Source of the DNA: an uncultured Thermoleophilia bacterium
GTDB lineage: Bacteria; Actinomycetota; Thermoleophilia; UBA2241
Assembly (NCBI GenBank): GCA_963715985.1
Contig: CAVQSP010000021.1
Span: forward strand, 70,864-134,863
Length of the DNA: 64,000 bases
Direction: 5' to 3'
Made by a program: the position numbers and the translations under genes. This document shows positions 26,179-53,304 of this stretch, piece after piece. Every line of letters starts with the position of its first letter. The first letter of the stretch is position 1. The notes under the pieces were generated by a model, which ran no database searches, had not been told where the DNA came from, and saw only the letters and a list, made by a program, of their open reading frames with translations.

Positions 26179-26183
26179 GCTCG

Positions 26184-28061: not shown

Positions 28062-28067
28062 TAGCGA

Positions 28068-30967: not shown

Positions 30968-30969
30968 CC

Positions 30970-36755: not shown

Positions 36756-38687
36756 CTAGGTCGAGGCTGAGGCGAGTGGCCCTTGTGCAATTAGGTTCTG
36801 GATGAAGGGTCGAAGCGCAAGAACGGCCTTGTCCATGCTCTGGCCCAGCAGGCCCAGGCCAAACGAGCACGTAGTCGTGGAGCCGAAGAAGAACCTCTCA
36901 TCGTCGGTAAGTACGCGAACCTGGATGCCTTGATCCGCGAACCGCTCCTCGTCGATATCCCTAGCAGACCAACAGATCGATCTGGCGTGAAAGTACTTCG
37001 TGGTGTTCTCAAGGTCCTTGAGCAGGTCCTCCGCTGCGTACTTGAACTCGATTAGCGATGGGGCCGTTCGATCATGTCCTGTCGGCGTTCGCGTAGTGGT
37101 GGAATTGATCTGGCGACGTTTGCTCTTGGGGGATTCGGTATTGCCCCCACTCGTCATACGTCATCTTGTAGCCGAGTGTTATACGTGTAGTAGCCCCTAA
37201 AGGAGCCCCTTCCCCAGCAAAGCTCATGGAAGAGGGCCACGACGGCGGCTTCTTGGCCTTATTGTTGCTTCAGGAAAGTGAGTGAACGTAGCACTCCCAG
37301 GATCTGGCAGTCTGCGGTTAGCTCCGTTGAACATCTGCTCGCGCTGCCATTGGTCCGCTGGGACTCGGGCCACAACGCCCGATCGGTGCCATCCCAGAGA
37401 ATCGAAGCAGCTTGTACATCTCGTTGAAGATCTCCTTGGCTAGCCATGGACAGGAGTTCACCGCGTCGCCTGGGAAGCGATTTCCGTCCTAATATATTAG
37501 TTGAGGGCGTCGTCCTGGAGAAGAATGAAGATGTTCGGCGAGCAGCCGGCCCGTAGCCGGTCGAGGGTGGAGTATATGGTTGATGCCGGTTGGCACCCTC
37601 TTGGTTGCCGTGGTGATGGCCCCTCGAAGTAGGTTCCGAGCGTTCTCCCCCGTCTTCGGTTGACCACCAGGCCTCGGCGTCTTGGCTCCAGGTCCGACCA
37701 GAGGTCGCGACTGGACGCCGCGAATGCGTAGAACCGAATCCAGCGTCCCGCTCTTGTAGACCTGGTCGACCTTCACCAGCGACTTGGCGTGCAGGTACTG
37801 GCGTTTTCTGGGCGTCGCCAAATGAATGCCAGCTTCGCATAGTAGCTTCGGTGTCAACTCGATAGGATGTCCTTCTTGGCCACGAACTCCCCGGGCAGCA
37901 TGTACCTGGATGGAAGTACTTCTTCTGCAACAAAGGCCCGCTCTGTCGAAGGCGGATGGGCGGAAACCTCACGGTGAACGGCGGTTTCGTACCTCCGGGT
38001 CGAATACGGAGTTCGTGTCGCCCTAGCGCCTGTTTTCGCGCTCGCAACCAGCAAACTCCACGACGCTCACCGGCTGATCGAAAGAGGTCGCCCTCGACCC
38101 TATGACTACTTCTACAATGTCGCCCAAACTTAATTCTGGCAGAAGGTCGAATGACGGGTGCCTATTGGGACGGCCTCTGTCGTCCGGGTAGGTGAACGTC
38201 GGGATCGTATCGCTTCTCGCCGTTCTTCCAGGCGGCGGCGCCGATGAATCCGAGCCTTCCGTCCCCAACGGCGGTCTCGGACTGAGTCTCAATCTCATAC
38301 CCGAATCTGACATGTAGATGGGTAAGCTGAGCTCCGACGCCCTTCTCGCCGATCTCTCCCTCCGCCTGTTGTCCTTGTCGGTCCCATGGGGAGCAAAGAG
38401 ACTCACCCAGCTTGTCGCCGTCGATACCGCAGCCGGTGTCAGTGCACTTCAATGCTGCGGGGATAGGCTACGTCGATGCTGACGTTGACGTGATGTGGGG
38501 CGAGAAGCGGGGCCGTAGAGCTTCCTCGTGATGGCCTTATGGTGTATACTGAGTTCTGGCAGAGGGAGTCGGCCAGGGTGTCCCATGGGTGGCTGTAGCT
38601 GTCGCAAATGTTGAGGATCTCCTTGCGAAAGTCCGTTTCTCGGAAGGCTGGGACAAGGATGTCGATGCTGATGGACTCGCTGGCCAT
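36756..38687 (-). CDS. GHKL/MORC ATPase with C-terminal PD-(D/E)XK-like nuclease; frameshifted, lower GC
   Basis: DSYSHPWDTLA..LCQNSV, TDTGCGID, GEIGEKGVG; C-terminal LIEFKYAAEDLLKD. Confidence 0.65.
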
Positions 38688-38966
38688 TGGAGCTCCCATC
38701 CGTCCCAGTTCGTCGATGGCATAGGAAGAGGCAGTGTGGCGTTGCCTGGGCGGAAGTCTCAACGCACCCATGGCATTCCGATCAAGATCCGACAGGCCGG
38801 ATCGAGCATGGACACCGTCGCGGCGCGGGCGAACTCCGTGGTTCTGACCAGCGCCTCCTAGCGTTCATCCTGAGCCGGGGTCAACGAGGCGCAGGCCTCG
38901 AAGCATTCGAATTGATCGTGGGATACTTCGCGGGGGTCCACCCATCAATGACTCGGAGAGGTTCCC

Positions 38967-39484
38967 ATGGGCAGCTCCTCGCCGTCACCTGCGACTCCTG
39001 CGGCGCGCCGATGGTGCCCAACGTGAGCACCATGGACGAGCACGGCTGCGGCTGGATCTGCCTGGACCCGGACTGCCCGGAGCTGGCCGCCACGGAGCTG
39101 GAGGCCGAGGACCTGGTGGAGGCGGGCGTGCCGGCGGAGCTCGCCCGCCGTCTCACGAAGCTCATCCTTCGCCGGGCGGACGAGGCGGACGCGCCCGCGA
39201 GGGCGCGCGAGCGGGCGCAGGCCGATCTCGCGCGTCTCCGGCAGGACCTTCTCGAGGCGCAGCGGCTAGCGAGCGAGGCGGCGGCCCTCGCCGACCGCCT
39301 CGCCGGCTTCCTTCGTGTCTCCTTCACGAGCGACGACTTCGCCGAGGGCCAGCAGGCCAGGGCGGACCTCGCCGTCGCCTCCGCCCTCAGCCGGCTGGCC
39401 GCGCGCACCGCCACCGAGGCCCGCGTGACCGTGGCCGGCATTGACGGGGAACTGCGGGGGCTGCTCACGGCGGACAACCTCTGA
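38967..39484 (+). CDS. Cys-rich (Zn-ribbon) coiled-coil hypothetical protein, copy 1
   Basis: CDSCGAPM...CGWICLDPDC followed by an Ala/Leu/Arg-rich helix; near-identical copy at 46769-47286. Confidence 0.55.
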
Positions 39485-39534
39485 GATCATCGCCGCGCGC
39501 GTCACGCTACTTCTACGGGCCTCTCACGGTCGCC

Positions 39535-39893
39535 GAAGCTGAGCGGATGCGGGAGCACATCTCCGGCGCACATCGGGTCTCTCCGTTCGCGAGATCCTCG
39601 AGATGTGGGAGACGCCGACGCCACTGGTCGCACGGACGGTCAGGCCCTTGCGGTTCCACGTCGCGCCCCTGGAGGGCCACGCGCACGTATTCGGCCGCGC
39701 CCTCGGGCATGATCGGCCGCCACTTCAAGGACCACCCGAAGCTGGGAGCCTCTTCGGCCCGGGGGTGAGGCGGCCGGGGGCCATGCCCGGCGACCAGCCG
39801 CGGCGGCTGCGGCTCGAGCTGGACAAGGGCGCGTCCGTCGCCGGGCTTGCCGGCCGAGATCGTGGAGCCGCGGGCAAGGGGGCCGTCGCCTGA
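39535..39893 (+). pseudogene. fragment of a GIY-YIG-like gene (copy A)
   Basis: RMREHIS, LRFHVAPLEG, GMIGRHFKDH, RLRLELDKGASV shared with 41775-42279. Confidence 0.55.
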
Positions 39894-40005
39894 CTGAAGC
39901 CATGGCGGCGCCGGTCGCGTCGGCATCCGGCGCGTGAGGATGTGCGTCGTCGGCTGCTGCGTTGTCAGGAACGTCACCCAGAATGGTGACATTTGCAGCG
40001 GATCC

Positions 40006-40170
40006 TTGACCGCGGCGGTGATTCCCGCATACTGCGAGGGTCACCCCCGCGAGCAGGATTCGCGGGTCCCTCGGGGTTGCGACTCTGGGGGCTTCTTCTG
40101 TTGGGGGTCCATCGTCAGCCGCACGGTCTCCCGCGTAGGCGGCTTCAACGTCTGCGACTCGGTCCTCAAT
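40006..40170 (+). ncRNA. orphan NYN promoter/leader RNA followed by a decayed NYN 5' stub
   Basis: TTGACC-16-CATACT; GGGTCACCCCCGCGAGCAGGATTCGCGG... homologous to 47365-47435; followed by V..GFNVCDS resembling VDGFNLYHS. Confidence 0.55.
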
Positions 40171-40248
40171 GCGAGGAGACGGGCAGGCCGGGCTCGGACG
40201 ACATGCTCTCAACGCGCCCCGGGCGGCAGTCGGCTTGGCTGCCGGGCT

Positions 40249-40713
40249 TCAGGTCGCGCGAGTGCCCTTCGAGGCTGGGTCGGTGCGGGCTTGGGGCCCG
40301 GAGGCCAGGACCGCGGCAAGCTCTGGTCGCACGGCCAGCAGCCGCATCAGCCGGTCCGCTGTCGCGCCCTGGACGACCGTGCCTGTCTCCCACCTCACGA
40401 CCGTCTTCGGTCCGGTGCCGAGGATTTGCTCCAGGCCGGCTTGCGAGACCCCGAGTGTCGCGCGCAGGGCGCGGATCTCGTCGGAGGTCATGAGGCCGTG
40501 CGTCGCGCGGACTCCATCCACGGCTTGTCTCTGCGCGGCTCGCATCGCGCTCGCGTCGAGGTAGACCTCGCCGCAGCTCTCGCAGCGACCGTGCTCGACA
40601 CCCTGGACGTCCACGCGTTCGCGGCGCACCTCGATCGCGAAAGCGGCGCGCGAAGCGGTCACGTGTCCGCCGCACTCGCCGCAGGTCGCAGGGAACATGG
40701 TCACCGCCTCCAC
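40249..40713 (-). CDS. mqsA: MqsA-family antitoxin (Zn finger + Xre HTH)
   Basis: CGECGG...CESCGEVY; IRALRATLGVSQAGLEQILGTGPKTVVRWETG. Confidence 0.88.
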   Translation of the reverse strand: MEAVTMFPATCGECGGHVTASRAAFAIEVRRERVDVQGVEHGRCESCGEVYLDASAMRAAQRQAVDGVRATHGLMTSDEIRALRATLGVSQAGLEQILGTGPKTVVRWETGTVVQGATADRLMRLLAVRPELAAVLASGPQARTDPASKGTRAT

Positions 40714-40717
40714 GCGC

Positions 40718-41032
40718 TCAGTGTGGTGCGCCGTCCCAGCAGCACGACCACACGTTCACGACCACCTCGTCGTCGTCGATGTACAGCTTCACGTACCAGT
40801 CCTCCGCCTGCCAGGTGACGATGTACTCATCGGCGGACTGCGCGTTCCGCAGCCTCGTCGAGCCGATCCACCTGCCCCGCAGCGGGAGGGTGCTCAGGAT
40901 GCCGGTGATCGTCTTCAAGGCGTCGTAGTCGTGATTCGTGAGCCACGAGATGACCCGAAGCGTGGCGACGACCTTGCCTTGCCGCGCCAGCTTGGCGACG
41001 ACGAAGGGCTCGTAGACCGGACCGCTCGGCAC
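40718..41032 (-). CDS. mqsR: MqsR-family toxin
   Basis: ~100 aa directly upstream of mqsA; ADEYIV...WYVKLYID...VVVNVWSC. Confidence 0.7.
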   Translation of the reverse strand: MPSGPVYEPFVVAKLARQGKVVATLRVISWLTNHDYDALKTITGILSTLPLRGRWIGSTRLRNAQSADEYIVTWQAEDWYVKLYIDDDEVVVNVWSCCWDGAPH

Positions 41033-41277
41033 CTGGCCACCCGTCAGAGATACGGTAGCATCATGCTACCGATAGAGTCAACGGTCCTGACGTCGCGTTG
41101 CGTCTGCATGGCGTCAGAACGGTAGGCGTACCGAACACTGCCCGCAAGGTTGACCGAGGGTCACGATCGCTGGTGACCTGGCGGGCATCGCCCGCAGCTG
41201 AATCCACCCCTGTCCGGCGCGGATGGACCCGGGTCGCTTGAGGCTCCGGTGCCGGGTCGAGAGGTCCGGCCGGCCCT

Positions 41278-41761
41278 TTCTTCTGCGCCGCCGGTCGGTG
41301 TCCCCCTGCAGCCCGTGGTCAACCAGGAGACGAGCCACGAAGAGGTCCAGTGGAACCTTCTGGAGATGGGCGCGTCCTTGGGCCTGGACGTCTGGGTGGC
41401 GCGGAACGATCGGAACAAGTCCTTCGGCGGTCACGCCTTCCAGGATGCTCCGCACACCACCGCGGTCTACTCGGGCCTGCTCCGCATGTCGGACCTCATC
41501 ACGCTGCATCCGAACCTGATGATCCGCCTTTACATCGTCGCGCCTGACGCCCGCAAGTCGAAGGTCATGAACGAGCTGGTGCGTCCGACCTTCGATGCGC
41601 TTGAGCCGCCGCTTCGCACGATCTGCGGGTTCATCCCGTACTCGCGGCTCTTCGCCGAAGCCGACACCGTGCGTCGGTACGGCGACCGGCTGAAGCCGGG
41701 GTTCCTCAGCGGCATCGCGGAGTACGCGCCGGACCTGGATGAGGGGTACCGGTCCGCCTGA
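41278..41761 (+). pseudogene. C-terminal fragment of a PD-(D/E)XK nuclease (EVE-associated type), with internal in-frame deletion
   Basis: HEEVQWNLLEMG..LGLDVWVARNDR, HTTAVYSGLLRMSDL, LYIVAP; lacks the IDVLW...AAFEVE segment present at 43645-44242. Confidence 0.7.
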
Positions 41762-41774
41762 GGTCGCTTTCCGA

Positions 41775-42279
41775 CGGACTGTGTCTATCGCGCCAACTCC
41801 TAAGTACTGACGGCTGCTTCTCGCTGCGCCAACCTCGGTACGTCGACCAGACGCGGCGGGGGTTCGGCCGGCGCATGCGCGAGCACTTCTCGAGCATGCT
41901 GTCGCTGGAGTATCTGCCCCACGACCCGGACGCGCTCGCCGCAGGCGACAGCGCGACGCTCTGCAAGGGGATCGGCGCCCTCCCTTGGCCGCTCCGCATC
42001 CCCGACACCCTCGACAGGCTGCGGTCGCTGACGTCCCAGCTCGTCGGCACCATCAAGCTCCTGAGGCTCCACGTTGCGCCGCTGGAGGGTGACGTGCACC
42101 TGTTCAATCGCGCTGAGGGCATGATCGGCCGTCACTTCAAGGACCACCTGCAGGTGACGACGTTCTTCGGGACCGGGGTGCGCCTGCCGGTGGCCATTCC
42201 AGGTGGCCAGCGGCTGAGGCTGCGACTCAGCCTCGCCGCGGGCGCTTCCGTCGTCGGATTCCCTACGGAGATCGTGTAG
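41775..42279 (+). pseudogene. GIY-YIG-like nuclease gene remnant (copy B, most complete C-terminal part)
   Basis: PRYVDQTRRGFGRRMREH resembles YVGxT...RxxEH. Confidence 0.5.
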
Positions 42280-42338
42280 CCATGGATGTCGCCGGCGGTG
42301 TGACCCGGGGCCGCTCCGTCGTCTTCATCGCCACGTCC

Positions 42339-42374
42339 CATCGTCCACCGCCGCGTCGCATCGTCACTCTTGAG
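42339..42374 (+). other. bipartite inter-cassette motif, copy 1
   Basis: CATCGTCCAC-cgccgcgtcgc-ATCGTCACTCTTGAG. Confidence 0.75.
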
Positions 42375-42496
42375 CAGCGAGCACCCGCGCGCGAGAGTCG
42401 AGCCATGTTTCGTTCTCGTGTCAAACCCCAACTGTCGCTGTTGATGGTCATCCAACAGGGCGACCGCAACGTCACCCATCGACGCGTTCTTCGCGC

Positions 42497-42580
42497 TTGC
42501 GCATCGGCCCCAGAGCGCTACACTCACGTCAATCCTCCCCGCCGTCCGGGTCATGCCGCACCGGCGGGGCTTTTCTTTGG
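42497..42580 (+). ncRNA. promoter plus putative leader ncRNA/terminator of the NYN gene
   Basis: TTGCGC-16-TACACT; GTCAATCCT-CCCCGCCG...GGGTCAT...CGGCGGGG-CTTTTCTTT. Confidence 0.6.
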
Positions 42581-42589
42581 CCCCCACGC

Positions 42590-43216
42590 ATGATGCCGCT
42601 GCGCGACCTCAGGGTCTGCGTCTTCCTGGACTGGCAGAACCTCTATCACCGTGCCCGTGAGGCGTTCATGGAGCCCGGAGCACCGGCGGCGGCGGGGCAG
42701 GTGGACCCGCTCGCCCTCGGACGACTGTGCGCGTCAAGGGTCGCCGGGGGTGTGCTCACTGGAGTGCGGGTCTACCGGGGGCGTCCCAGTCGCCACCATG
42801 ACGTGCGCTCCTACTCGGCCTTTCGAAGGCAGACGGAGCGCTGGCTACGGGACGGCGACGGCCTCGTCTCTGTGGCGGCACTGGACCTGCGGTATCCGCA
42901 CGAGTGGCCTTTGCGCCCAGCACAGGAGAAAGGCGTCGACGTGGCGCTCGCTGTGGACTTCGTGCTGATGTGCGTCCGTCGCGAGTACGATGTCGGTATC
43001 CTGTTCTCCGGCGACACAGATCTGGTTCCGGCGCTCAGAGCTGTGGTGGCGCTGCGTCCGGGCGAGCCTCCGGCGTGTGAGGTGGCGGCGTGGGCGCCGC
43101 CGGCCGGACGACCGCGGTCTCTTGCGGTCCGCCGGATTCGTCTCAAGCGCCACCTGCTCGGCGAGGCGGATTTCCGGGCGGTGGCTGATCCGACCGACTA
43201 CACGCGCAGGCCCTGA
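42590..43216 (+). CDS. NYN domain protein
   Basis: VFLDWQNLY, VRVYRG, QEKGVDVALAVD, FSGDTDLVPA, EVAAW, DPTDY. Confidence 0.9.
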   Translation: MMPLRDLRVCVFLDWQNLYHRAREAFMEPGAPAAAGQVDPLALGRLCASRVAGGVLTGVRVYRGRPSRHHDVRSYSAFRRQTERWLRDGDGLVSVAALDLRYPHEWPLRPAQEKGVDVALAVDFVLMCVRREYDVGILFSGDTDLVPALRAVVALRPGEPPACEVAAWAPPAGRPRSLAVRRIRLKRHLLGEADFRAVADPTDYTRRP

Positions 43217-43259
43217 GCGTGTCGACAGCAGCTACAGTTCCGCGGAGGCCTCTGCGCGC

Positions 43260-43635
43260 CCTGAGCCCGAGATCGTGCGCGACTGCGGCGGCTATCTCTG
43301 GACGATCCCGCTCATCGGTCGGGAGTGGCCCTGGTATGTCCGCCAAAACGCGGTGCGGCTGCGGCCGGCGGATGCGCGAGCACATCTCCCGCATGCTGTC
43401 GCTGAAGGATCCGCGTCTCCATGAACCGGACGCGCTGGCCGCCGGCGACAGCACGCCGCTCTGGAAGGGCGTCGGCGGCCGCAGGTCGGGTCTCTCTATC
43501 CCCGGGACCCTCGAGGGCTGGAGGCGCTGACGGCCGCTGGTCGCACGCATGGTCAGGCTCGTGCGGTTCCACGTCGCGCCCCGGGATGGCGGCGCGCACT
43601 TCTTCGAGCGCGTCGCGGGCATGATCGGCCGCCCC
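43260..43635 (+). pseudogene. GIY-YIG-like gene fragment (copy C)
   Basis: GGYLWTI...PWYV.Q, RMREHISRMLS, PDALAAGDS, RFHVAP, GMIGR. Confidence 0.55.
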
Positions 43636-43644
43636 GACCTGTCG

Positions 43645-44242
43645 TTCCTCCTGCGCCGCCGGTCGGTGTCCCCCTGCAGCCTGTGGCCAACCAGGAGACG
43701 AGCCACGAAGAGGTCCAGTGGAACCTTCTGGAGATGGGCGCGTCCTTGGGTCTGGACGTCTGGGTGGCGCGCAACGACCGCAACAGGTCCTTCGGCGGCC
43801 ACGCGTTCCAGGATGCTCCGCGCCTGAGAGAAGCGCTTCCTCGGCAGTTCGAGCCCCAAGTCATGTCCCTCATCGAGCACATCGACGTGCTCTGGCTGCG
43901 GGGGAATCGCGTGGAGGCGGCGTTCGAGGTCGAGCACACCACCGCGGTCTACTCCGGCCTGCTCCGCATGTCGGACCTCATCACGCTGCACCCGAACCTG
44001 ATGATCCGCCTGTACATCGTCGCGCCCGACGCCCGGAAGTCGAAGGTCATGAACGAGCTGGTGCGCCCGACCTCGATGCGCTCGAGCCTCCGCTGCGCAC
44101 GGTCTGCGGGTTCATCCCGTACTCGCGGCTGTTCGCCGAAGCCGAGACCGTGCGCCGGTACGGTGACCAGCTGAAGCCGGGGTTCCTCAGCGGCATCGCG
44201 GAGTACGCGCCGGACCTGGATGAGGGGTATCTGTCGGCCTGA
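43645..44242 (+). pseudogene. C-terminal half of a PD-(D/E)XK nuclease (copy 2)
   Basis: IEHIDVLWLRGNRVEAAFEVEHTTAVYSGLLRMSDL; near-identical to 41278-41761. Confidence 0.72.
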
Positions 44243-44311
44243 GGTCGCTTCTCGGCTTCTCTGACCGCGCTGGTCGCCGGTCGTGTCTCTCTATCCCCAA
44301 GATCCTCGTGC

Positions 44312-44347
44312 CATCGTCCACGCGCCCCACCGATCGTCACTCTTGAA
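44312..44347 (+). other. bipartite inter-cassette motif, copy 2
   Basis: CATCGTCCAC-gcgccccaccg-ATCGTCACTCTTGAA. Confidence 0.75.
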
Positions 44348-44468
44348 GGCCGCCTGCTTCGGCGCGGAGTCGGAACATGGACATTCTCGGCATCCAGACC
44401 AGTCTGCCCTCGCCTCCTCAGCCGCGCGGGGCCGAGCGCAGTGTCACCCTCCGGCCGGCGGCCCGCGC

Positions 44469-44552
44469 TTGCACGTGTGCCGGCAAGCGGTACATTGTCG
44501 TCAATCCTCCCCGCCGATTTGAGTCATTCCGAACCGGCGGGGCTTCTTCTCT
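44469..44552 (+). ncRNA. promoter plus putative leader ncRNA/terminator of the NYN gene
   Basis: TTGCAC-16-TACATT; GTCAATCCT-CCCCGCCG...GAGTCAT...CGGCGGGG-CTTCTTCT; homologous to 42497-42580. Confidence 0.6.
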
Positions 44553-44572
44553 AAGATCCCAGCATCCTGATC

Positions 44573-45190
44573 GTGAGCGAAGCAGGATCGCAGCGGGTCG
44601 TCGTCTTCCTCGACCACCAGAACGCGTACCATCGCGCCCGTGACGCATTCTGTGCTCCTGCTGCACCCGCGAGGGACAGTAGGTCGATCCTTGGCGCTCG
44701 GCCAGCTTCTCTGCGCCCGCGTCCCTGGGCGCCGACTTGCGGCGTGCGCGGACCTGGGCATCCCAGCCAGCGTCGCGACGCACGATCCTCCGCCGCGTAT
44801 GTCCGCCAGACCGACAGGCAGCTGGGGCGTGGCGGGGGACTCCTCACTCTGGTCGCGCGTGATCTGCGGTATCCACCGGACTGGCCGCAGCGGCCGGCCC
44901 AAGAGAAGGGCATCGATGTCGCTCTCGCGGTCGACCTCGTGATGACGGTCGCGCGACGAGTGCGACGTCGCCATCGTGTTCTCCAGCGACACCGACCTGC
45001 TGCCGGCGCTCGAGGCATGCTCGCCCTCCGGCCGGGCGAGCCGCCGGCCTGTGAGGTCGCTGCGTGGGCGCCGGCAGCGGGGCGGCCTCGCTCGCTGGCG
45101 GTTCGCAATGTGAGGCTCCGGCGCCATCTCCTCAGCGGGGCCGATTTCCGGGCCGTGGCCGATCCCGTGGACTACACGCAAGGTCGGTGA
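44573..45190 (+). CDS. NYN domain protein; frameshifted
   Basis: VFLDHQNAY, QEKGIDVALAVD, FSSDTDLLPA, DPVDY; paralog of 42590-43216. Confidence 0.8.
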   Translation: MSEAGSQRVVVFLDHQNAYHRARDAFCAPAAPARDSRSILGARPASLRPRPWAPTCGVRGPGHPSQRRDARSSAAYVRQTDRQLGRGGGLLTLVARDLRYPPDWPQRPAQEKGIDVALAVDLVMTVARRVRRRHRVLQRHRPAAGARGMLALRPGEPPACEVAAWAPAAGRPRSLAVRNVRLRRHLLSGADFRAVADPVDYTQGR

Positions 45191-45194
45191 TGCT

Positions 45195-45400
45195 GCCGTC
45201 GCCTATCCCACGAACGGTCAAGCTCCGGCGGTTCCTCGTCGGGTCATTGAGGGCAACGCGTCCGCTTCGACCGCCCCCCCGGCATGATCGGCCGATACTT
45301 CAAGGACCCCCCCGCAGGTGACGGCGTTCTTCGGGACGGGCGTGCGCCTGTTGGCAGCGATTCCAGGGGTCGGTTTCACACCGGCAGTGACACGGATTGG
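45195..45400 (+). pseudogene. GIY-YIG-like gene C-terminal fragment (copy D)
   Basis: GMIGRYFKD, VTAFFGTGVRL..AIPG. Confidence 0.5.
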
Positions 45401-45421
45401 CCCCGACCTCCTTGTCGGCGG

Positions 45422-45456
45422 CATCGTCCACACCACACCGCCTTCGTCATTCTGAG
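45422..45456 (+). other. bipartite inter-cassette motif, copy 3
   Basis: CATCGTCCAC-accacaccgcc-TTCGTCATTCTGAG. Confidence 0.65.
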
Positions 45457-45579
45457 GCTCCGAGCACCGGCTTCAGAGTTGGGCCGTACCCGTCGGTTCT
45501 ACGCGACGTTGCTGCGGATATTGCATTTGCTTCATTTAGCACTACCATGAGGTGAGGCTGTCTCGAGAGGGGGTGAGTG

Positions 45580-46050
45580 ATGGAGGCATCGCCTACAAGA
45601 CCAGCTATCGGTCCACCGGACGTGTGTTCTGCCCGGACGCCGGCGAGGCGCCCGCCTTCACGCTCCTCGATCGCAGCCTGCGCGCTGCGAACGAGGCCGC
45701 CGGGCGGCCGGTAGAGCTCGCGTTCGCGTCCGGGCAGAGCGTCGTGTGCCGGACAGCGTCGCCAAGGTCCTCGCGATCGTCGTCCGGGAGATGGCCGCCG
45801 GCAACGGTGTCGCGGTCGTCCCCGTGCAGCACGAGCTCACCACCCACCAGGCCGCCGCTCTGTTGCACGTCTCACGCCCGCATCTCATCCGCATGCTCGA
45901 CGAGGGCCGCCTGCCGTACCGACGCGTAGGTACCATCGCCGCGTCCGGCTCGACGACGTGCTGGCTCACCGCGCCCGAGGAGAAGCGGAACGCGAGGTCT
46001 TGCTCACGCGCCTCGCTCAGGACTCCCAGGCTCTCGGGCTGGAGTTCTGA
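45580..46050 (+). CDS. excisionase-like HTH antitoxin; frameshifted
   Basis: ELTTHQAAALLHVSRPHLIRMLDEGRLPYRRVGT; directly upstream of a PIN gene. Confidence 0.8.
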
Positions 46051-46053
46051 GCC

Positions 46054-46596
46054 TTGCCGACCGCGCTGCTCGACGCCTGCGTGCTCTACCCGATGGGCCT
46101 GCGCAACACGCTCCTCAGCGTCGCGCAGGCCCAGGCCTACCGCCCTCTCTGGTCCGCGCAGATCCTCGCCGAGGTGCGCAATGCCCTCGTGCGGTCTGCG
46201 CTGGGCGTGCAGCCCGCTCGCGCGGATCGTCTGCTCGCCACGATGCGCGCAGCATTCCCTGAGGCGATGGTGACCGGCCACCTGCACATGGTGCCCGAGA
46301 TGGGCAACGAGCCGGCCGATCGGCACGTCCTCGCGGCGGCCGTCGCCGGGAGAGCGAACGGCATCGTGACCTTCAACCTGAGGCACTTCCCCAGCAGTGT
46401 CTGTGCGCCGTTCGGCGTCGAGGCCCGCTCGCCTGACGACTTCCTCACTGCTCTGCTCGGGGAGAGCGCCGATCGCGTGCTCGAGGGACTGCAAAGGCAG
46501 GTCGCGCGCTACGACGCGCCGCCCATGACGAGGTTGAGCTCGTGTCACGGCACGAAGCACGCCTTCCTGAGTTCGTCTCGGCTGTCCGGGCCCTGA
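46054..46596 (+). CDS. PIN domain protein (VapC50-like)
   Basis: ALLDACVLYP, WSAQILAEV, DRHVLAAAV, IVTFNLRHFP, PDDFL. Confidence 0.88.
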   Translation: MPTALLDACVLYPMGLRNTLLSVAQAQAYRPLWSAQILAEVRNALVRSALGVQPARADRLLATMRAAFPEAMVTGHLHMVPEMGNEPADRHVLAAAVAGRANGIVTFNLRHFPSSVCAPFGVEARSPDDFLTALLGESADRVLEGLQRQVARYDAPPMTRLSSCHGTKHAFLSSSRLSGP

Positions 46597-46768
46597 TGGG
46601 CTGAGCCGGGACTCCGAGACGCCGGCAAGCCGTGTCCGCCGTGGCCATCCGTGCCACTCAGCCCGCCATTCGGCTGTGCTGAGGGAGTGCGCGCGCGATC
46701 GCCGGGTGCATGCGCGAGAGGATGTCCGCGACCTCGGTGCCCCGAGCCCGCGACCCCGGGAGGTCCCC

Positions 46769-47286
46769 ATGGGCGAGCTCCTCGCCGTCACCTGCGACTC
46801 CTGCGGCGCGCCGATGGTGCCCAACGTGAGCACCATGGACGAGCACGGCTGCGGCTGGATCTGCCTTGATCCCGACTGCCCGGAGCTGGCCGCCGAGGAG
46901 CTGGAGGCCGAGGACCTGGTGGAGGCGGGCGTGCCGACAGAGCTCGCCCGCCGTCTCACGAAGCTCATCCTTCGCCGAGCGGACGAGGCGGACGCGCCCG
47001 CGAGTGCGCGCGAGCGGCGCAGGCCGATCTCGCGCGTCTTCGCCAGCATCTTCTCGAGGCGCAGCGGCTCGCGAGCGAGGCGGCAACCCTCGCCGACCGT
47101 CTCGCCGGCTGCCTCCGCGTCTCCTTCACGAGCGACGACTTCGCCGCCGGACAGCAGGCCAGGGCGGACCTCGCCGTCGCCTCCGCCCTCAGCCGGCTGG
47201 CCGCGCGCACCGCCGCCGAGGCCTGCGCGTCCGTCGCCGGCGTCAGTCCGGACCTGCCGGGGTTGCTCGCCACGAGGGACTCGTGA
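46769..47286 (+). CDS. Cys-rich (Zn-ribbon) coiled-coil hypothetical protein, copy 2; frameshifted
   Basis: GGAGG RBS, MGELLAVTCDSCGAPMVPNVSTMDEHGCGWICLDPDC; duplicate of 38967-39484. Confidence 0.55.
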
Positions 47287-47331
47287 CCGCGTTCTCTCGT
47301 CGTCCACGGGGTTGACGTTCCAGCCGTACCG

Positions 47332-47432
47332 TTGACCCCGCCGGAGTCGGGCTGCATAGTGGGTGGGTCACCCCCGCGAGCAGGACTCGCGGCCCCCCCG
47401 GGGTCGCGACCCCGGGGGTTTCTTCGTTTCTG
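47332..47432 (+). ncRNA. promoter plus putative leader ncRNA/terminator of the NYN gene
   Basis: TTGACC-17-CATAGT; GGGTCAC, hairpin CCGCGAG-CAGGA-CTCGCGG, hairpin CCCCCGGGGTC-GC-GACCCCGGGGG, TTTCTTCGTTT. Confidence 0.6.
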
Positions 47433-47440
47433 GGGCCAAT

Positions 47441-48073
47441 GTGAACCGCGTGGTTTACCTCGTCGACGGCTTCAATCTGTACCACTCTCTGCGCGACGTG
47501 GAGAGAGACCACGGTCGGGCGCTGCGCCGGCTCGACCTCGGTGCGCTTTGCGGTGCCCTGGCGCACGCCGTGCCGGGAAGGTGCGAGGTCTCGGGCATCG
47601 TGTACTTCAGTGCCCTGGCTCGCCACATGGAGGCGTCGCGGCCGGGCACAGTCGCCCGACACCTGCGCTATCTCGATGCCCTGCAGGCCACCGGGGTGGA
47701 GACCGTCCTCGGCCATTTCAAGCGTCGGCAGGTGCGGTGCCCCTACTGTGGGAGGGTCCGCGACCGCTGGGAAGAGAAGCAGACCGACGTCGGTATCGCC
47801 GTGCGACTCGTGAGGCTGGTCGCGACGGGCGCGTGCGAGCGGGTCTTGGTGATGTCGGGAGACACCGATCTCGTGCCCGCCATCAGCGAGGCTCGTTCGT
47901 CGTGGCCGGCGAGCAGAGGCGTCGCCTTCCCGGCGCGAAGGGCGAACGCGCAGCTGCGTGCCGTCGCGGACTGGACCATCAACCTCGACGCGGGCTCGTA
48001 CCTGAGGCATCAGCTTCCGGCGGTCGTGCTGGGCCGGGACGGCGCGGAGATACGGCGACCCGTCGACTGGTGA
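47441..48073 (+). CDS. NYN domain protein
   Basis: YLVDGFNLYHS, VYFSALA, CPYCG, EEKQTDVGIA, MSGDTDLVPA, RPVDW. Confidence 0.9.
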   Translation: MNRVVYLVDGFNLYHSLRDVERDHGRALRRLDLGALCGALAHAVPGRCEVSGIVYFSALARHMEASRPGTVARHLRYLDALQATGVETVLGHFKRRQVRCPYCGRVRDRWEEKQTDVGIAVRLVRLVATGACERVLVMSGDTDLVPAISEARSSWPASRGVAFPARRANAQLRAVADWTINLDAGSYLRHQLPAVVLGRDGAEIRRPVDW

Positions 48074-48150
48074 TCCCGTCTGGGGTCGCGCCAGCTGGTT
48101 TGCGAGCTCCTCGCCGGCTCCCTCTGCGTCGACTTCACGGTCGGCGACGC

Positions 48151-48185
48151 TATCGTCCACGCCACGTCGCCATCGTCACTCTGTG
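48151..48185 (+). other. bipartite inter-cassette motif, copy 4
   Basis: TATCGTCCAC-gccacgtcgcc-ATCGTCACTCTGTG. Confidence 0.7.
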
Positions 48186-48307
48186 TGGAGGTCGTGTGGA
48201 GGCGCATGCTCCTCGCATGACCGCTTCCTCCGCCATCAGCAACGGCGCCGCGAACGAGCACACCACGTTTGGCAAACGCCCCTTCATCGACTATGATTAG
48301 TAGTCAA

Positions 48308-48924
48308 ATGACGACGTATCGTAGTCAGAATGGTCTGGCCGCCCTGTTTGCCTCGGCGACACTCGGTGACCTCCTCAGGCTGTTCATGCTCGACCCTCAG
48401 CGGGAGTTCTACCAGCGCGAGCTGCAGCGGCTCACCGGCGCTCACCTGCGGCAGCTGCAGCGTGACCTCCTGCGACTGCGGCAGGCGGGGTTGGTGACCC
48501 GGCGCGCTCACCGGCAACCGCACCTACTATCGGGCCGTCGTCGAGCATCCGGCGTTCGCGGAGTTATCCGGGCCGCCGTCATGAAGACGCTGGGCCTTGG
48601 CGACGTGCTGCGCGAGGCCCTGCAAGAAGCCCCTCGGCGACGCGGTCTCGGTCGCGTTCGTCTATGGCTCGTTCGCGCGCGGCGACGATGTCGCCGGGAG
48701 CGACATGGACCTCTTCGTCGTCGGGTCGGCGTCGCGGCGCGAGGTCGCGGGCGCATTCGCTTCGTCCGCCGCCGCGCTGGGGCGGGAGCTCGACCCGATC
48801 ATCCTTACACCGGCCGACTTGACGACGCGGTGGCGGGCCGGCAGACCACTTCGTCGTGTCGGTGCTTGACGGCCCTCGGATATGGCCCGTTGGTGACGAA
48901 GACGCGCTTGCAGAGCTGGCTTGA
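48308..48924 (+). CDS. HTH + minimal nucleotidyltransferase (MNT) antitoxin; frameshifted
   Basis: FYQRELQRLTG HTH; AFVYGSFARG...SDMDLFVVG. Confidence 0.8.
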
Positions 48925-49349
48925 GGCCGGAGCGCTGCGCCGCCATCGCACCTCGCGGGCCGAGGTGGTGGACGTTCTTGCAGTCTGGCGGACCGGGACA
49001 TCGCCGACGCCCAGGTGACCAGCTCTCGCTGGACCGCCGCTTCGCCACGGCCTACGGAGCTTCGCTTCAGCTGGCGACCATCGTCCTCTCAACGTCCGGC
49101 TTTCGGGTCGTCGCGCGACGCGGCCACCTCGCCGTGACCTGGCAGGCCGTGCCTGAGCTCATGGGCGCAGAGGTCAGCGACACCGCCGTCTACTTCGAGT
49201 CCTGCCGGGCGCTTCGCAACCGCAGCGACTACGACCGGGCCGGCGTGGTCTCGGCGACCGACGTCGAGGAGGTCATCCGCGAGGCGCAAGCCTTTCGGAC
49301 GCTCGTTCTCGACTGGCTTGTCAGCGAGCATCGGGGCCTCGTGCCTTGA
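48893..49349 (+). CDS. HEPN-domain toxin; frameshifted
   Basis: RFATAY, GFRV...GHLAV, CRALRNRSDYD; overlaps the MNT gene end. Confidence 0.7.
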
Positions 49350-49539
49350 TCGTTTCGACCGCGAGCCGACCACCTCCGTTCACGACGGCGCCCGTGCGGC
49401 TGGCGACGAGCGGGGGTCGTACCTTCGAGTGCGCCAGGCACGCTCCACCGACCCTGTCCCCTGGCCCGCGGAGGTCCTGAGCTGTCGAGGTGCGCACTGC
49501 CGATGACTGGCGAGAGCGCCTCGGTCACGCCTGCGTCGG

Positions 49540-49575
49540 CATCGTCCACCTGGAGACGCGATCGTCATCCTTGAG
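49540..49575 (+). other. bipartite inter-cassette motif, copy 5
   Basis: CATCGTCCAC-ctggagacgcg-ATCGTCATCCTTGAG. Confidence 0.7.
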
Positions 49576-49626
49576 TCTCCCGCACATGGGTCTGACACTG
49601 CGGAGCATGGAGCTCAAAGTACATGC

Positions 49627-49655
49627 TTGCACGGATACCGTGAATCCATTACTAT
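49627..49655 (+). promoter_or_regulatory. higBA promoter with operator palindrome
   Basis: TTGCAC-17-TACTAT; CACGG-ata-CCGTG inverted repeat. Confidence 0.6.
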
Positions 49656-49662
49656 CCTTGCG

Positions 49663-49953
49663 ATGATCGAGTCGTTCGGCGACCGAGCGACGGAGGACCT
49701 GTTCCACGGAAGGCGGTCGGCGCGTGCCTGGCGTTACCCTCCGGGGGTGTCTGAGGCGGCGGTGACGAAGATGGACCTGCTGAACGCCGCGGCGGCTCTC
49801 CAGGATCTGCGGTCACCGCCGGGCAATCGACTGAAGGCGCTGAGAGGCGCGTTGCAGGGCTGCTACTCAATCCGCGTCAACGACCGGTGGCGTCTCGTGT
49901 TCCGCTGGAGCGACGGCGACGCGTACGGCGTGCGTCTGACCGACTACCACTAG
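49663..49953 (+). CDS. higB: HigB (RelE/ParE-like) toxin
   Basis: MIESFGDRATEDLF, DLRSPPGNRLKALRG, YSIRVNDRWRLVFRW, DYH. Confidence 0.92.
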   Translation: MIESFGDRATEDLFHGRRSARAWRYPPGVSEAAVTKMDLLNAAAALQDLRSPPGNRLKALRGALQGCYSIRVNDRWRLVFRWSDGDAYGVRLTDYH

Positions 49954-49960
49954 GAGCGAC

Positions 49961-50251
49961 ATGCTGCTTCCCGAGAACCGCATCCCTACGCACCCCGGCA
50001 AGATCATCAGCCGGGAATACCTGGCGCCGCTCGGCGTCTCGCAGGTGGCACTGGCGGCGCATATCGGCGTACCCGTCCAGCGGGTCAACGAGCTCGTCCG
50101 CGGCAAACGCGGTGTGACGCCCGAGACGGCCTGGCTGCTCGCCCAGGCGTTCGAGACCACGCCCGACTTCTGGCTCAACCTGCAGGCCGCCTACGACCTC
50201 GCGCGCACCCGGCCTGAGCGTGCGATCCCGCCGCTCAAGTCCGCGAGCTGA
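49961..50251 (+). CDS. higA: HigA antitoxin
   Basis: PTHPGKII..EYL.PLGVSQ, RVNELVRGKRGVTPETA, FWLNLQ..YDL. Confidence 0.92.
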   Translation: MLLPENRIPTHPGKIISREYLAPLGVSQVALAAHIGVPVQRVNELVRGKRGVTPETAWLLAQAFETTPDFWLNLQAAYDLARTRPERAIPPLKSAS

Positions 50252-50272
50252 CGAGCCGGTACGCGGGTCCGC

Positions 50273-50468
50273 TCAGGCGCCGAGCGACTTGCGGATGTCC
50301 CTCATCAGCAGGACGAGGTGGAGAGGATGGGTGGGTGACGGCTCGAAGCCGTACCGCTCGTAGAGGCCCCGGGCCTCGGCGTCCTTGGCATGCACGAGGA
50401 CGGCGCGCACGCCGATGAGGGTGGCCGCCTCGGCGGAGCGGGCGAGCGCCTGCAGCAGCATCTGCTCG
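50273..50468 (-). pseudogene. GNAT toxin (TacT-like) C-terminal fragment
   Basis: IGVRAVLVHAKDAEARGLYERYGFEPSP. Confidence 0.7.
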
Positions 50469-50469
50469 T

Positions 50470-50645
50470 CGGCCGTGTCCCGGGCGGTCGTCTCGCGGGC
50501 GTGCGAGTCTATCGTGGGCGCCCCAGCCAACGCCGCGACGCGAGATCCTACGCCGCGCACGTGCGGCAGACCGACAGGCAGGTCGGGCGAGGCGGGGGGC
50601 TTCTGACTCTGATCGCGCGCGATCTGCGCTATCCGTCCGACCGCG
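50470..50645 (+). pseudogene. internal NYN gene fragment
   Basis: GVRVYRGRPSQRRDARSY...ARDLRYP matches 44730-44880. Confidence 0.7.
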
Positions 50646-50753
50646 TTTCGAAGTGTGCCGCTGCCCGGGCGCATGCTGCGTCCTGAGCGTCATGGTCCAC
50701 TGGCTGGTTTACATATAGGTGTATTCAGCACACCTTGGTGGTAGGCTGAACTC

Positions 50754-51025
50754 ATGGGACTCACCATCAAGAACGACGAGACGGAACGGCTCGCCGGCGA
50801 GGTCGCCGAGATGACCGGCGAGAGCAAGACCCAGGCCATCCGCCAGTCCCTGCGCGAGCGCCGTGACAGGCTCGCGCTGCGCGTCACGCCGGAGGCGCGG
50901 CGGCGCCATGTGCGGCGTTCCTGGAGCGGGAGGTATGGGCGGCGATCCCGGCCGACCAGCTCGGCAAGGCTCCCGACAAGGCCGAGCGCGAGCGGATCCT
51001 CGGCTACGGGCCCCACGGGGTGTAG
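50754..51025 (+). CDS. vapB: VapB antitoxin (Rv0623-like); frameshifted
   Basis: MGLTIKNDETERLA..VA..TGESKTQAIR.SLRER; ILGYGP end. Confidence 0.85.
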
Positions 51026-51030
51026 CGGCC

Positions 51031-51426
51031 GTGATCGTCGACGCATCCGCCCTGCTGTCGCTGATCTTCGCCGAGCCGACGGCGGGCCTCATCGAGCAAC
51101 GCCTCGAGGGCGCAGACGCGCTGGGCATCGGCGCGCCCACCCTCGCCGAGGTCTCGCTCGTGCTCGGCAGCCGGCTCGACCGCGATGCCATGCCGCTGCT
51201 GGGCAGGCTGCTGCAGGAGTTCGCCATCGTCGTTGTGCCGTTCTCAGAGCAGCACTGGGCGGAAGCCACCGACGCGTTCATGCGTTTCGGACGCGGACGG
51301 CACCCGGCAGCGCTCAACTACGGCGACTGCATGACCTATGCCGTGGCCAGCCTGTCCGACCAGCCGCTCCTGGCCATGGGGGACGACTTCCCGCAGACCG
51401 ACCTCGAGCTGGTGCCGCTGAGCTGA
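51031..51426 (+). CDS. vapC: VapC PIN toxin
   Basis: IVDASAL, FGRGRHPAALNYGDCMTYAVA, GDDFPQTD. Confidence 0.92.
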   Translation: MIVDASALLSLIFAEPTAGLIEQRLEGADALGIGAPTLAEVSLVLGSRLDRDAMPLLGRLLQEFAIVVVPFSEQHWAEATDAFMRFGRGRHPAALNYGDCMTYAVASLSDQPLLAMGDDFPQTDLELVPLS

Positions 51427-51459
51427 GGCGCGTCAGTCCGTCGCCGCCCCGCCCCGTCG

Positions 51460-51960
51460 TGGCCTACGCTGCCCATCGGGATGTCGCCGTTGACCTCGAC
51501 GAAGCGCAGACCCTCGTCGGTGAGAAAGGAGTCCCAGCGGAGGATCGACCAAGCCTCGTGGGCCCGCGGCTCAAGGCACAGGATCGCCGCCGCCCAGTCA
51601 TCGAACCGGCCCAGGTGCGACGCTGCGCAGAGCTCGCGGCCCTCGAGCACCGCGTCGTGGACCTTGCGCAGGGCGGAGGAGAGGTAGGTGACTGCGTGCT
51701 CCTCCGCCACCATCTCCGCGGCCGCCACCAGCCGTGGCCGGGCCACGGAGCAGAACGGCCGCTTGCCCAGCCACAGGCCCTGCTCGCGCTGCTGGTCGAC
51801 GAGGGAGTCCACAAACCCGTCCGGGTCGCTGCAGGCCGTGAAGCAGCTCGTTCCAGTACTGCGTCGCCTCGCGGCGCTCCACGGAGAAGCTGGTCGGTCT
51901 CATGGCGGGCGGGCGCTCCCTTCCCTCGCGGGGCCGTGCTCGTGAACCGTATCGGTACGG
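51460..51960 (-). pseudogene. N-terminal fragment of a circularly-permuted ATP-grasp/glutathionylspermidine-synthase-like protein
   Basis: GKRPFCSVARPRLV, LRWDSFLTDEGLRFVEVNGDIPMG; truncated. Confidence 0.45.
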
Positions 51961-52072
51961 AGGCGCGGAGGTCCTGTCGGTGCGGGCGCCGGTCGGCGCA
52001 GCGGTGACGCTGCCGACTGCTGACCGCAGCCACGCCCATGTGCGACAATGCCGGGTACTGGAGGTGAGGCTC

Positions 52073-52369
52073 GTGAAGCGTGACGAAGCTCTCAAGGTGC
52101 TGGCCGCACATCGAGAGGAGCTGCGCGCCATGGGCGTGGAGCGCCTCTCGTTGTTCGGCTCCGTGGCCCGCGACGAAGCCGTCGAGAGCAGCGACATTGA
52201 CATCCTGGTGGAGTTCGTCCCGGGTGCGCGCATCGGCATGTTCGAGTTCCTCGGGGTACAGGAGACGCTCGCATCCCTGCTAGGCGTCGAGGTCGACCTC
52301 GCCACCCCGGCCTCTCTTCACCCTCGCCTTCGCGACGCCATTCTTGGGGAAGCCGTCCTTGCCGCCTAG
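52073..52369 (+). CDS. MNT nucleotidyltransferase antitoxin
   Basis: LSLFGSVARDEA..SSDIDILVEF, LGVEVDLAT. Confidence 0.9.
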   Translation: MKRDEALKVLAAHREELRAMGVERLSLFGSVARDEAVESSDIDILVEFVPGARIGMFEFLGVQETLASLLGVEVDLATPASLHPRLRDAILGEAVLAA

Positions 52370-52696
52370 GGACTGGGACATCCGCATCCACGACATCATC
52401 GTGTCCGTGGAGAGGGTTCTTCACTACACAGCGGGGATGGACAGGGCGGCCTTCAAGGCCGATGAGCGCACCGTTGACGCGGTCGTGCGCAACCTCATCG
52501 TCATCGGTGAGGCGGCCGGGCACGTGCCGGACGACGTCGTGGTGGCCAACCCGCAGATCCCTGGCCGCGCATGCGAGGCATGCGCAACCTGGCGGTGCAC
52601 GAGTACTTCGGCGTGGACCTCGACGTGTTGTGGGACACGGTGACGGTGAATCTGCCCGCGCTGCTCCCCTCACTGCGGGAGCTTCTCGACGCGTGA
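52359..52696 (+). CDS. HEPN/DUF86 toxin; frameshifted
   Basis: DAVVRNLIVIGEAA, MRNLAVHEYFGVD (RxxxxH). Confidence 0.88.
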
Positions 52697-52799
52697 CCTC
52701 GGCGGACCACGCCTGACGCGGAGGCCAGGTGCCTCGAAAGGGTCAAGGTGCACGACGCGGGGAGTGAGGCGCGCGGCCGCAGAGCCAGGTTGCCGAACA

Positions 52800-53220
52800 C
52801 CTCCGGTTGCTCCCTGGAGCCGCGATGTACCGCGCTCGAGTCGCCCTGGGGCCCCACGCTGAGGACGGCGGAGTGCTCCGCGCTCACCGTGCGCTTCTCT
52901 CCGAAAAGGAGGTAGCGCTGCCTGGTGATGACGAGGTCACCCCTGTCGACGTCGTGCACGCGCTGGAGCTGCGCAGGCTTCCCGAGAGCCGTCTCGTAGG
53001 CGACCAAGGCGATCTGCTCGCCGTCCCGCACTGCGACGGGCGACCGCACCAGGACGTCCGCGGCGTTGAAGCCCGCGTCGCCGTCATCTCACCGGGCGGG
53101 GGCCGTGGTCCTTCGTCAGCCCCAGCCGTCACGCGGACACCCCTGGTCGCCACGACCGGATACATGCTCGTGGAGGCGTGTTCAGTCGGGGGCACCGTTG
53201 GAAGTCCCGTCAGATGAAAT
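52800..53220 (-). pseudogene. degenerate hypothetical gene fragment
   Basis: VDRGDLVITRQRY.FFGEKRTVS looks protein-like; frames are broken. Confidence 0.3.
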
Positions 53221-53304
53221 CGCGATTCGGAGCGTGCCCGGGACGGCGCGGAAGGGCGGGCGCCGGGGCGCCGGGCAGGGACGCGGACCCCGGCGCCGAA
53301 ACGG

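Follow-up and report, generated by a model that had tools for sequence, protein, structure and literature searches.

Toxin-antitoxin modules are usually thought to be self-regulated, one by one. Among the described systems that come closest to the element reported here, CRP/FNR-type promoters depend on activator sites at -61.5 (class I) and -41.5 (class II), AraC-type promoters have direct half-sites whose spacing is about 21 bp and which adjoin the -35 element, and the stoperators of cluster A mycobacteriophages are single 13- to 14-bp repressor sites within the phage genome. In Mycobacterium tuberculosis, 73% of primary start sites are reported to have a TANNNT element centred 7 to 12 bp 5' of them, without any -35 consensus, and leaderless transcripts are described for 32 of 37 toxin-antitoxin pairs (PMC3898074); promoter re-use independent of the downstream gene has also been reported (PMC3575422). 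We analysed a bipartite motif, CATCGTCCAC-N11-ATCGTCA, that recurs between toxin-antitoxin cassettes in a 64,000-nucleotide (nt) stretch of DNA from an uncultured Thermoleophilia bacterium (GenBank assembly GCA_963715985.1, contig CAVQSP010000021.1, positions 70,864 to 134,863 of the forward strand; hereafter, the window). As judged from comparison among related genomes, the motif is probably an operator or activator site shared by the genes of a family-specific regulon, located upstream of a weak predicted promoter (P1) that precedes many unrelated toxin-antitoxin modules among these uncultured soil bacteria.

A sequence-only reading of the window had described five same-strand, intergenic copies of the motif, each with an 11-nt spacer of different sequence between its two boxes, and these points were borne out. 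The copies are as follows:

42339 to 42366, plus strand: motif copy 1 (box 1, 11-nt spacer, box 2), exact match, 43.8 bits with the covariance model R1 described below
44312 to 44339, plus strand: motif copy 2, exact match
45422 to 45449, plus strand: motif copy 3, one mismatch, box 2 starting with T
48151 to 48178, plus strand: motif copy 4, one mismatch, first base T, 52.5 bits with model R1
49540 to 49567, plus strand: motif copy 5, exact match

Allowing up to three mismatches, 100 dinucleotide shuffles of the window gave a mean of 0.17 matches against these five; the largest count was 2, and no shuffle reached five. The whole 4.35-Mb assembly, scanned at one mismatch or fewer, contained only the same five copies. 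The control in genome scans was the reversed pattern, which yielded 0 to 1 hits per scan and none in this one. When the motif was generalised to CGTCMAC-N11-WTCGTCAYYCT and two mismatches were allowed, nine further, weaker sites were recovered on contigs C14 and C11 of the assembly, again with no control hit. All five window copies sit between Pfam-supported genes, every open reading frame (ORF) that overlaps them being unsupported. The flanks of copies 1 and 2 are old duplicates (repeat families D15 and D17) and the remaining flanks are unrelated. Short stems that had been proposed just 5' of the copies did not hold up, as the 70-nt upstream segments folded no better than shuffled sequence (z from -0.18 to +0.91).

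To describe the surroundings of the motif, sites from several genomes (denoted by G numbers) were aligned. The first alignment comprised 33 sites found by the 27-nt motif alone, from which those of G007 and G034 were dropped as aberrant; several of the 31 remaining rows are orthologous, and the independent cases number about 20. A sequence-only covariance model (R1) was built from this alignment, and sites were scanned by pattern together with this model, which found no further site in the window and aligned 66 sites across 54 sources. In the 31 rows, box 2 extends as WTCGTCAyyCT, and a -10-like hexamer, yAnnnT, lies 24 to 26 nt 3' of box 2. The A at its second position is at least 90% conserved and the T at its sixth is invariant in the 31 sites; both are at least 90% conserved in the 66-site alignment. 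An ATG or GTG follows the hexamer after 6 to 7 nt in 29 of 31 rows and in 48 of the 66 model-aligned rows, a count in which rows cut by local alignment were scored as misses and for which the alignment leans to the model. By eye, no purine-rich stretch was seen 5' of the ATG in the aligned rows. Counting the A of the ATG as +1 places the -10 at -12 to -7, box 2 at -45 to -38 (centre -41.5), and box 1 at -65 to -57 (centre about -61). The two boxes are direct copies of one WTCGTCAC-like word with a 20-bp period, and the invariant CT that closes the motif opens a poor -35 (cTGGnn or TTGAGC) abutting box 2.

On the basis of this comparison, the pattern is that of an actinobacterial leaderless promoter, and we named the predicted promoter P1. 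It resembles the TANNNT promoters of M. tuberculosis in its conserved second-position A and sixth-position T, in the 6 to 7 nt that lead to a start codon placed as +1, in the lack of a strong -35, and in that toxin-antitoxin genes are typically leaderless there; it differs in that the first -10 base is mostly C here, and the upstream two-box element does not appear in the considered parts of that paper (PMC3898074). In the window, the candidate P1 elements, placed by the aligned columns of the sequence, are the following:

42393 to 42407, plus strand: P1 of copy 1, GAGAGT (42393-42398), 6 nt, ATG (42405-42407)
44365 to 44379, plus strand: P1 of copy 2, CGGAGT (a poor -10), 6 nt, ATG at 44377
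45474 to 45479, plus strand: P1 of copy 3, -10-like CAGAGT, no ATG or GTG at the expected place
48205 to 48219, plus strand: P1 of copy 4, CATGCT, 6 nt, ATG at 48217
49594 to 49609, plus strand: P1 of copy 5, GACACT, 7 nt, ATG at 49607

The short frame that opens at the P1 ATG connects to the first cassette gene in six of the eight loci read. At four loci (the HigBA loci of the window, G001, and G024, and the first NYN locus of the window) the connection is an ATGA overlap; the 62-codon ORF of copy 1 overlaps the NYN start at 42590 in this way, and the 19-codon ORF of copy 5 overlaps the HigB start. At two others, MNT of G002 and VapB of G020, the frame runs without interruption into the first gene. 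The frame is unlinked at the window MNT, where it ends 8 nt short, and at the second NYN locus of the window. This arrangement offers a hint, and only a hint, that the predicted leaderless AUG may help to translate the first gene on a longer transcript.

The distribution of the motif was measured by scanning relatives. A first draw from the genus found it in 16 of 36 other genomes, as against none of 24 from other genera of the class (control 0), and a genus-wide scan found it in 28 of 54 (one control hit). With the generalised form, 63 of 89 genomes of the order and 9 of its 11 genera were positive, with one control hit. When genomes were drawn evenly from the class, 18 of 24 from one family (f1) carried the motif compared to 4 of 116 from nine other families, with no control hit, and each of those four outside matches was single and contained one mismatch. 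We conclude that the motif is restricted to one family of Thermoleophilia and is almost absent elsewhere in the class. This range bears on the idea that the site is a DnaA box or the target of another general DNA-binding protein. Box 1 does resemble the high-GC DnaA box, differing at two positions from the actinobacterial consensus, and two relatives carry ATTGTCCAC, a form closer to it. DnaA is universal, however, whereas the motif is confined to one family, which makes a DnaA site unlikely; in addition, box 2 lacks the CCAC core, and the base following CCAC is mostly C rather than A. We consider this identity of the site highly improbable.

The genes downstream of the motif are diverse. Sites in G014 precede MazE/PemK (MazEF) and, as assigned by eye, an NYN-like gene for which the 64 residues tried gave no Pfam hit. 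A G002 site precedes a Gp49-like toxin with an XRE antitoxin, a site on contig C14 of G000 precedes a Gp49-like protein (a weak match, E 0.0024, below the Pfam cut-off), a G020 site precedes VapB/VapC (from translation, by eye), and one site precedes a DUF3800 protein. Altogether, the motif precedes at least six unrelated toxin-antitoxin families among the genomes examined. Single sites with the same geometry were also present before small lipoproteins in G000, G072, and two genomes of another genus; at the sites of that other genus the P1 ATG is the start of the lipoprotein gene itself, and an Amidase_6 gene comes next. Most targets are thus unrelated toxin-antitoxin families, and the sites before single chromosomal lipoproteins indicate that the element serves ordinary chromosomal genes besides cassettes.

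A set of targets that includes lipoproteins with an amidase neighbour recalls envelope-stress regulons, and the motif itself might be an alternative sigma promoter of the extracytoplasmic function (ECF) type, with box 1 as an AAC-like -35 and box 2 as a CGTC -10. ECF -10 elements commonly have a CGTC core, and box 1 reads GCAACGTC at many sites. The details fit poorly, however. The would-be AAC reads AAC in 27 of the 56 rows with letters and ATC in 19, AGC in 7, ATT in 2, and ATG in 1, and the gap from AAC to CGTC is 19 nt, compared to the usual ECF spacing of 16 to 17 nt. The boxes are copies of one word, which points instead to two copies of one DNA-binding domain, and the -10-like hexamer and start codon 26 to 38 nt downstream would be left unexplained. 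Among the Sigma70_r2 matches listed for five genomes, none lay downstream of a motif site, the nearest being 5 kb behind, so no auto-regulated sigma gene was apparent. We therefore regard an ECF-type promoter as unlikely.

The fixed distance from the motif to the -10 and start codon, its family-wide occurrence, and the six or more toxin-antitoxin families behind it fit an operator co-regulating unrelated toxin modules, which the sequence-only reading had offered as one half of its interpretation; that half is supported, the attachment-site half is not (see below), and the attached promoter P1 had been missed. From the observed motif, its range, its geometry, and its downstream genes we infer that P1 would fire under the control of a protein bound to the boxes. 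In the proposed mechanism, a family-specific DNA-binding regulator would occupy both boxes on one face of the helix and recruit RNA polymerase to the weak P1, with its housekeeping-type -10 and poor -35. Transcription would start at the ATG or GTG itself to give a leaderless transcript and would pass through the cassette's own promoter (P2) and the antitoxin-bound operator into the cassette, beyond the auto-repressed P2. Many toxin-antitoxin modules and a few chromosomal lipoprotein genes would in this way be tied to one signal. The box centres of -61 and -41.5 coincide with the places where class I and class II activators classically bind, and activation of P1 by the regulator is most likely, with repression as the alternative sign.

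The arrangement resembles class I/II and AraC-type promoters in having two sites on one face near -61 and -41.5, a proximal site that touches a poor -35, and a weak core; it differs in its GC-rich direct repeats with a 20-bp period, its predicted leaderless start, and targets that are mostly toxin-antitoxin cassettes with a promoter of their own. The copies are like stoperators in being numerous and asymmetric and in facing one way within the short gaps between consecutive genes, but they are two-box sites fixed to a promoter and occur on the chromosomes of a whole family.

Several observations count against the proposed regulon. Two of the 31 rows, window copy 3 and G005b, lack the start codon, and a simple promoter scan calls no P1, only two stronger cassette promoters. 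A 20-bp period with an unconserved middle is unusual, since known actinobacterial direct-repeat binders use 11-bp periods. Many of the sites counted among relatives are orthologues, so that the counts overstate independence. Regulation alone does not predict that fragments of two island genes, termed X and B, end 2 to 3 and 3 to 4 nt before copies 4 and 2, respectively. Finally, no candidate regulator was found: gene X and a CapH/CapP-like pair were both ruled out.

Gene X encodes a zinc-ribbon (CxxC...CxxxxC) and coiled-coil protein of about 179 residues and was located at 38687-39484 (X1) and 46769-47335 (X2) in the window and at positions 1957-2496 of locus L071, the G002 array. It is multi-copy and often fragmentary in the islands (X2 has a frameshift near 47017), it is the commonest neighbour of the motif, and it often ends 17 to 30 nt 5' of it. 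No Pfam, NCBIfam, or PADLOC family matched gene X, and Atlas leads were weak (0.82 or less). It occurs in 37 of the 89 genomes of the order and in none of 12 genomes of one genus, of which 6 carry the motif; its absence from a motif-bearing genus excludes it as the regulator. Gene X is cassette cargo that usually has NYN as its neighbour, and it is probably paired with NYN, perhaps as its partner or antitoxin. In the window, the letters after X1 (39485-39530) and after a gene B fragment (39905-39960) resemble decayed or collapsed motif copies; the model scored neither. The second candidate was a CapH-like helix-turn-helix (HTH) protein paired with a CapP-like (ImmA/IrrE-type) peptidase at L071 3789-4982, between two NYN cassettes of G002. 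Such a pair acts in known systems as a DNA-damage-responsive switch for defence genes. The homologues of this pair in G000 were found on contigs other than the array contig, and the pair was rejected.

The cassettes behind the five window copies each have a better predicted promoter, P2, which begins 60 to 131 nt past the motif end, in agreement with the earlier statement that the copies lie about 50 to 130 bp before the next promoter. The promoters, genes, and gene fragments of this part of the window are as follows:

42466 to 42477, plus strand: third, single box GCAACGTCACCC, noted by eye about 60 nt 5' of the NYN P2 start
42497 to 42524, plus strand: predicted P2 of NYN cassette 1, TTGCGC, 16 nt, TACACT, read from the sequence
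42590 to 43216, plus strand: NYN cassette 1 (Pfam NYN, E 3.3e-10)
44272 to 44308, plus strand: gene B fragment (family D20), its homology stopping 3 to 4 nt before motif copy 2
44469 to 44496, plus strand: predicted P2 of NYN cassette 2, TTGCAC, 16 nt, TACATT, followed by a hairpin and T-run
44573 to 45190, plus strand: NYN-like cassette 2, a paralogue of cassette 1 (repeat families D3, D6, D12, and D19; no Pfam hit)
45521 to 45548, plus strand: predicted P2 of the PIN cassette, TTGCAT, 16 nt, TACCAT, by eye
45552 to 46596, plus strand: small protein (45552-45929) and PIN_3 toxin (46054-46596; Pfam PIN_3, E 1.5e-8)
46769 to 47335, plus strand: gene X copy 2, frameshifted (families D1 and D2)
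47363 to 48073, plus strand: NYN cassette 3 (Pfam NYN, E 8.6e-10)
48103 to 48148, plus strand: internal gene X fragment (family D14), its homology stopping 2 to 3 nt before motif copy 4
48269 to 48297, plus strand: predicted P2 of MNT-HEPN, TTGGCA, 17 nt, TATGAT, from the promoter scan (10 of 12 matches)
48308 to 49349, plus strand: MNT (48597-48869) with an N-terminal extension, and HEPN (48921-49349)
49627 to 49655, plus strand: predicted P2 of HigBA, TTGCAC, 17 nt, TACTAT, spacer palindromic, conserved in G001 and G024
49663 to 50251, plus strand: HigB toxin (Pfam HigB-like toxin, E 1e-17) and HigA antitoxin (HTH_3, E 3.9e-11)

The module list given earlier (NYN, NYN, HTH-PIN, MNT-HEPN, HigBA) was correct in all but one member, the supposed HTH protein, which had no Pfam, NCBIfam, or PADLOC hit. 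The HigB start lies 7 nt past the -10 of P2, and the HigB transcript is therefore predicted to be leaderless as well. In the approximately 90%-identical HigBA loci of the window, G001, and G024, the homology takes in P2 with its palindromic spacer and fades between P2 and the P1 start; to the left of this fade-out, only the box, -10, and ATG positions agree. The predicted P2 is, on this comparison, a part of the cassette. The P2 region of NYN cassette 1 is 70% alike to 44430-44516 (family D15), and the single box GCAACGTCACCC was seen by eye at the equivalent place in the NYN cassettes of G002 and G076. Gene X copy 2 continues directly into the promoter of NYN cassette 3 with no motif unit (the motif together with P1) between them.

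The other half of the earlier interpretation took the motif for a recombination or attachment site of an integron-like system, where cassettes would enter or leave. Each cassette has one site, all sites are co-oriented, and the MNT-HEPN, HigBA, NYN, and X cassettes occur in different orders among relatives. The gene X and gene B fragments that end just before copies 4 and 2 would be accounted for, and in G002 two X copies are alike up to the stop codon, 17 nt before the motif, beyond which the motif unit matches the kind of cassette behind it. Motif units of unrelated sequence stand before HigBA copies that are 90% alike, a finding that cuts both ways, for the unit evidently does not travel with the cassette. 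Most of the evidence speaks against this reading. Homology breaks occur both at 2 to 17 nt on the left side of the motif and in the interval from P1 to P2, and the unit is missing between window X2 and NYN cassette 3 and in four relatives with the same contiguous X-NYN match; with breakpoints on both sides of the unit and the unit absent at this junction, there is no single crossover point. A tyrosine recombinase is absent from the array contig in four of five genomes (G000, G001, G021, and G076), the nearest and sole one on the array contig of the fifth, G002, lies about 300 kb from the array, and a search of the five for serine recombinases gave none. No tyrosine recombinase is thus present within about 300 kb of any of the five arrays. 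RNAalifold returned 0 pairs on the 31 sites and on the 66 sites, single sites stand at conserved chromosomal lipoprotein genes, and recombination would not need a fixed spacing to the -10 and start codon. We judge an attachment site to be improbable.

The arrays are like integron attI/attC arrays in their small, co-oriented, toxin-antitoxin-rich cassettes and the one repeated site between cassettes. They differ in having no adjacent integrase, no imperfect palindrome, and no RYYYAAC/GTTRRRY cores (the last had been noted in the sequence-only reading). The site moreover stands alone before some chromosomal genes and is linked to a -10 and start codon. A hand-picked hairpin, pairing the spacer with bases past box 2, was tried and rejected; it paired in 52% of cells as against 44% in shuffled and 49.5% in slid sequence. 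An Rfam scan of 36000-54000 at E of 1 or less returned nothing. No RNA run containing this stretch was listed among the public reads, and four public DNA runs yielded only contigs of 150 to 550 nt at low depth on this stretch, and the joints were ambiguous between paralogues. One metagenome contig (public run X2) matches the window to 47428 and then continues in letters that include a ATCGTCAAC box, so some related population may carry a motif unit there.

The truncated genes at the left edge, the near-identical cassettes behind unrelated units, and the arrays that differ between species led us to weigh a variant in which the motif and P1 unit might be the landing pad of an undescribed cassette-capture system independent of an integron integrase, with toxin-antitoxin cassettes that bring their own promoters being inserted or exchanged alongside it; the chances of this are slim in our estimation. 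Selection would explain the left-edge junctions more simply, because a deletion that takes away the promoter region of an addictive module would not persist.

The presence and absence of the unit also raised the question of whether the approximately 70- to 170-nt motif and P1 unit might be a "mobile promoter", a selfish or re-used module with no dedicated regulator. G002, G076, and other genomes have the unit between X and NYN, and it is absent at the window X2-NYN3 junction and in the four relatives mentioned above, and homology breaks on both of its sides. Yet conservation among the unit copies is limited to the box, -10, and start positions, the spacer and the stretch from box 2 to the -10 varying even before 90%-identical HigBA, and this argues for selection on binding positions rather than recent copying. 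The repeat analysis, which included no search aimed at such features, showed neither terminal inverted repeats nor target duplications. The likeness to the published mobile promoters is that a similar promoter unit stands before unrelated genes; the difference is that whole promoters are highly similar in the considered parts of that report, compared to about 25 shared positions here (PMC3575422). A mobile promoter is accordingly an improbable explanation, and a family-specific regulon is the one we favour.

Literature searches on toxin-antitoxin promoters in Thermoleophilia and on motifs 5' of leaderless toxin-antitoxin genes in Actinobacteria, neither covering supplementary files, listed no description of such an element, and the lineage-specific two-box promoter element with its putative regulon is new. 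The two-box element and an upstream candidate promoter, standing ahead of the modules' own auto-repressed promoters, are common to at least six unrelated module families of one bacterial family. If one factor binds the boxes, it would be a common switch for many toxin modules at once, and the co-ordination of the modules and the signal behind it would become testable with a defined DNA site. This would be a first regulatory motif for this uncultured Thermoleophilia lineage and could serve as a marker for its accessory islands.

Further features of the island were recorded. In all three NYN cassettes, a hairpin and T-run lie between the promoter and the NYN start (42537-42579, 44509-44550, and 47395-47428). 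In the first of these, the hairpin itself spans 42537-42569, ahead of the NYN start at 42590, with a terminator-like call at 42554-42566; in the third, the position of the hairpin and T-run places the true NYN start past 47428. The GC-rich, terminator-like NYN leader may be an attenuator or a small RNA. The window MNT (48308-48869) seems to be the tail of a longer gene, as in G002 (L071 7039-7647, 202 aa); its N-terminal extension had no family hit, and relative to the G002 counterpart it is frameshifted at about 48500-48580 and is either broken or mis-assembled. Beyond HigBA, the island also holds modules that lack the motif: a PIN gene (50863-51426), an MNT-HepT pair (51902-52643), and an NYN fragment (50515-50641) that is 82% alike to 44755-44881. 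A gene of no assigned function is present in two copies (41249-41761 and 43683-44174) with 92 to 96% identical DNA, and for one copy PADLOC returned a type II restriction enzyme as a weak match (E 1.2e-9 over 54 residues). The neighbouring gene B is present as fragments at 39564-39893, 43341-43612, 44272-44308, and 45280-45367. No tRNAs were found in the window. Of ten long ORFs at 23-38 kb, nine had no Pfam hit and one contained a weak UvrD-like fragment. The region from 18000 to 38000 has a lower GC content (0.60 to 0.65 compared to about 0.69) and may be a decayed mobile element adjoining the toxin-antitoxin island.

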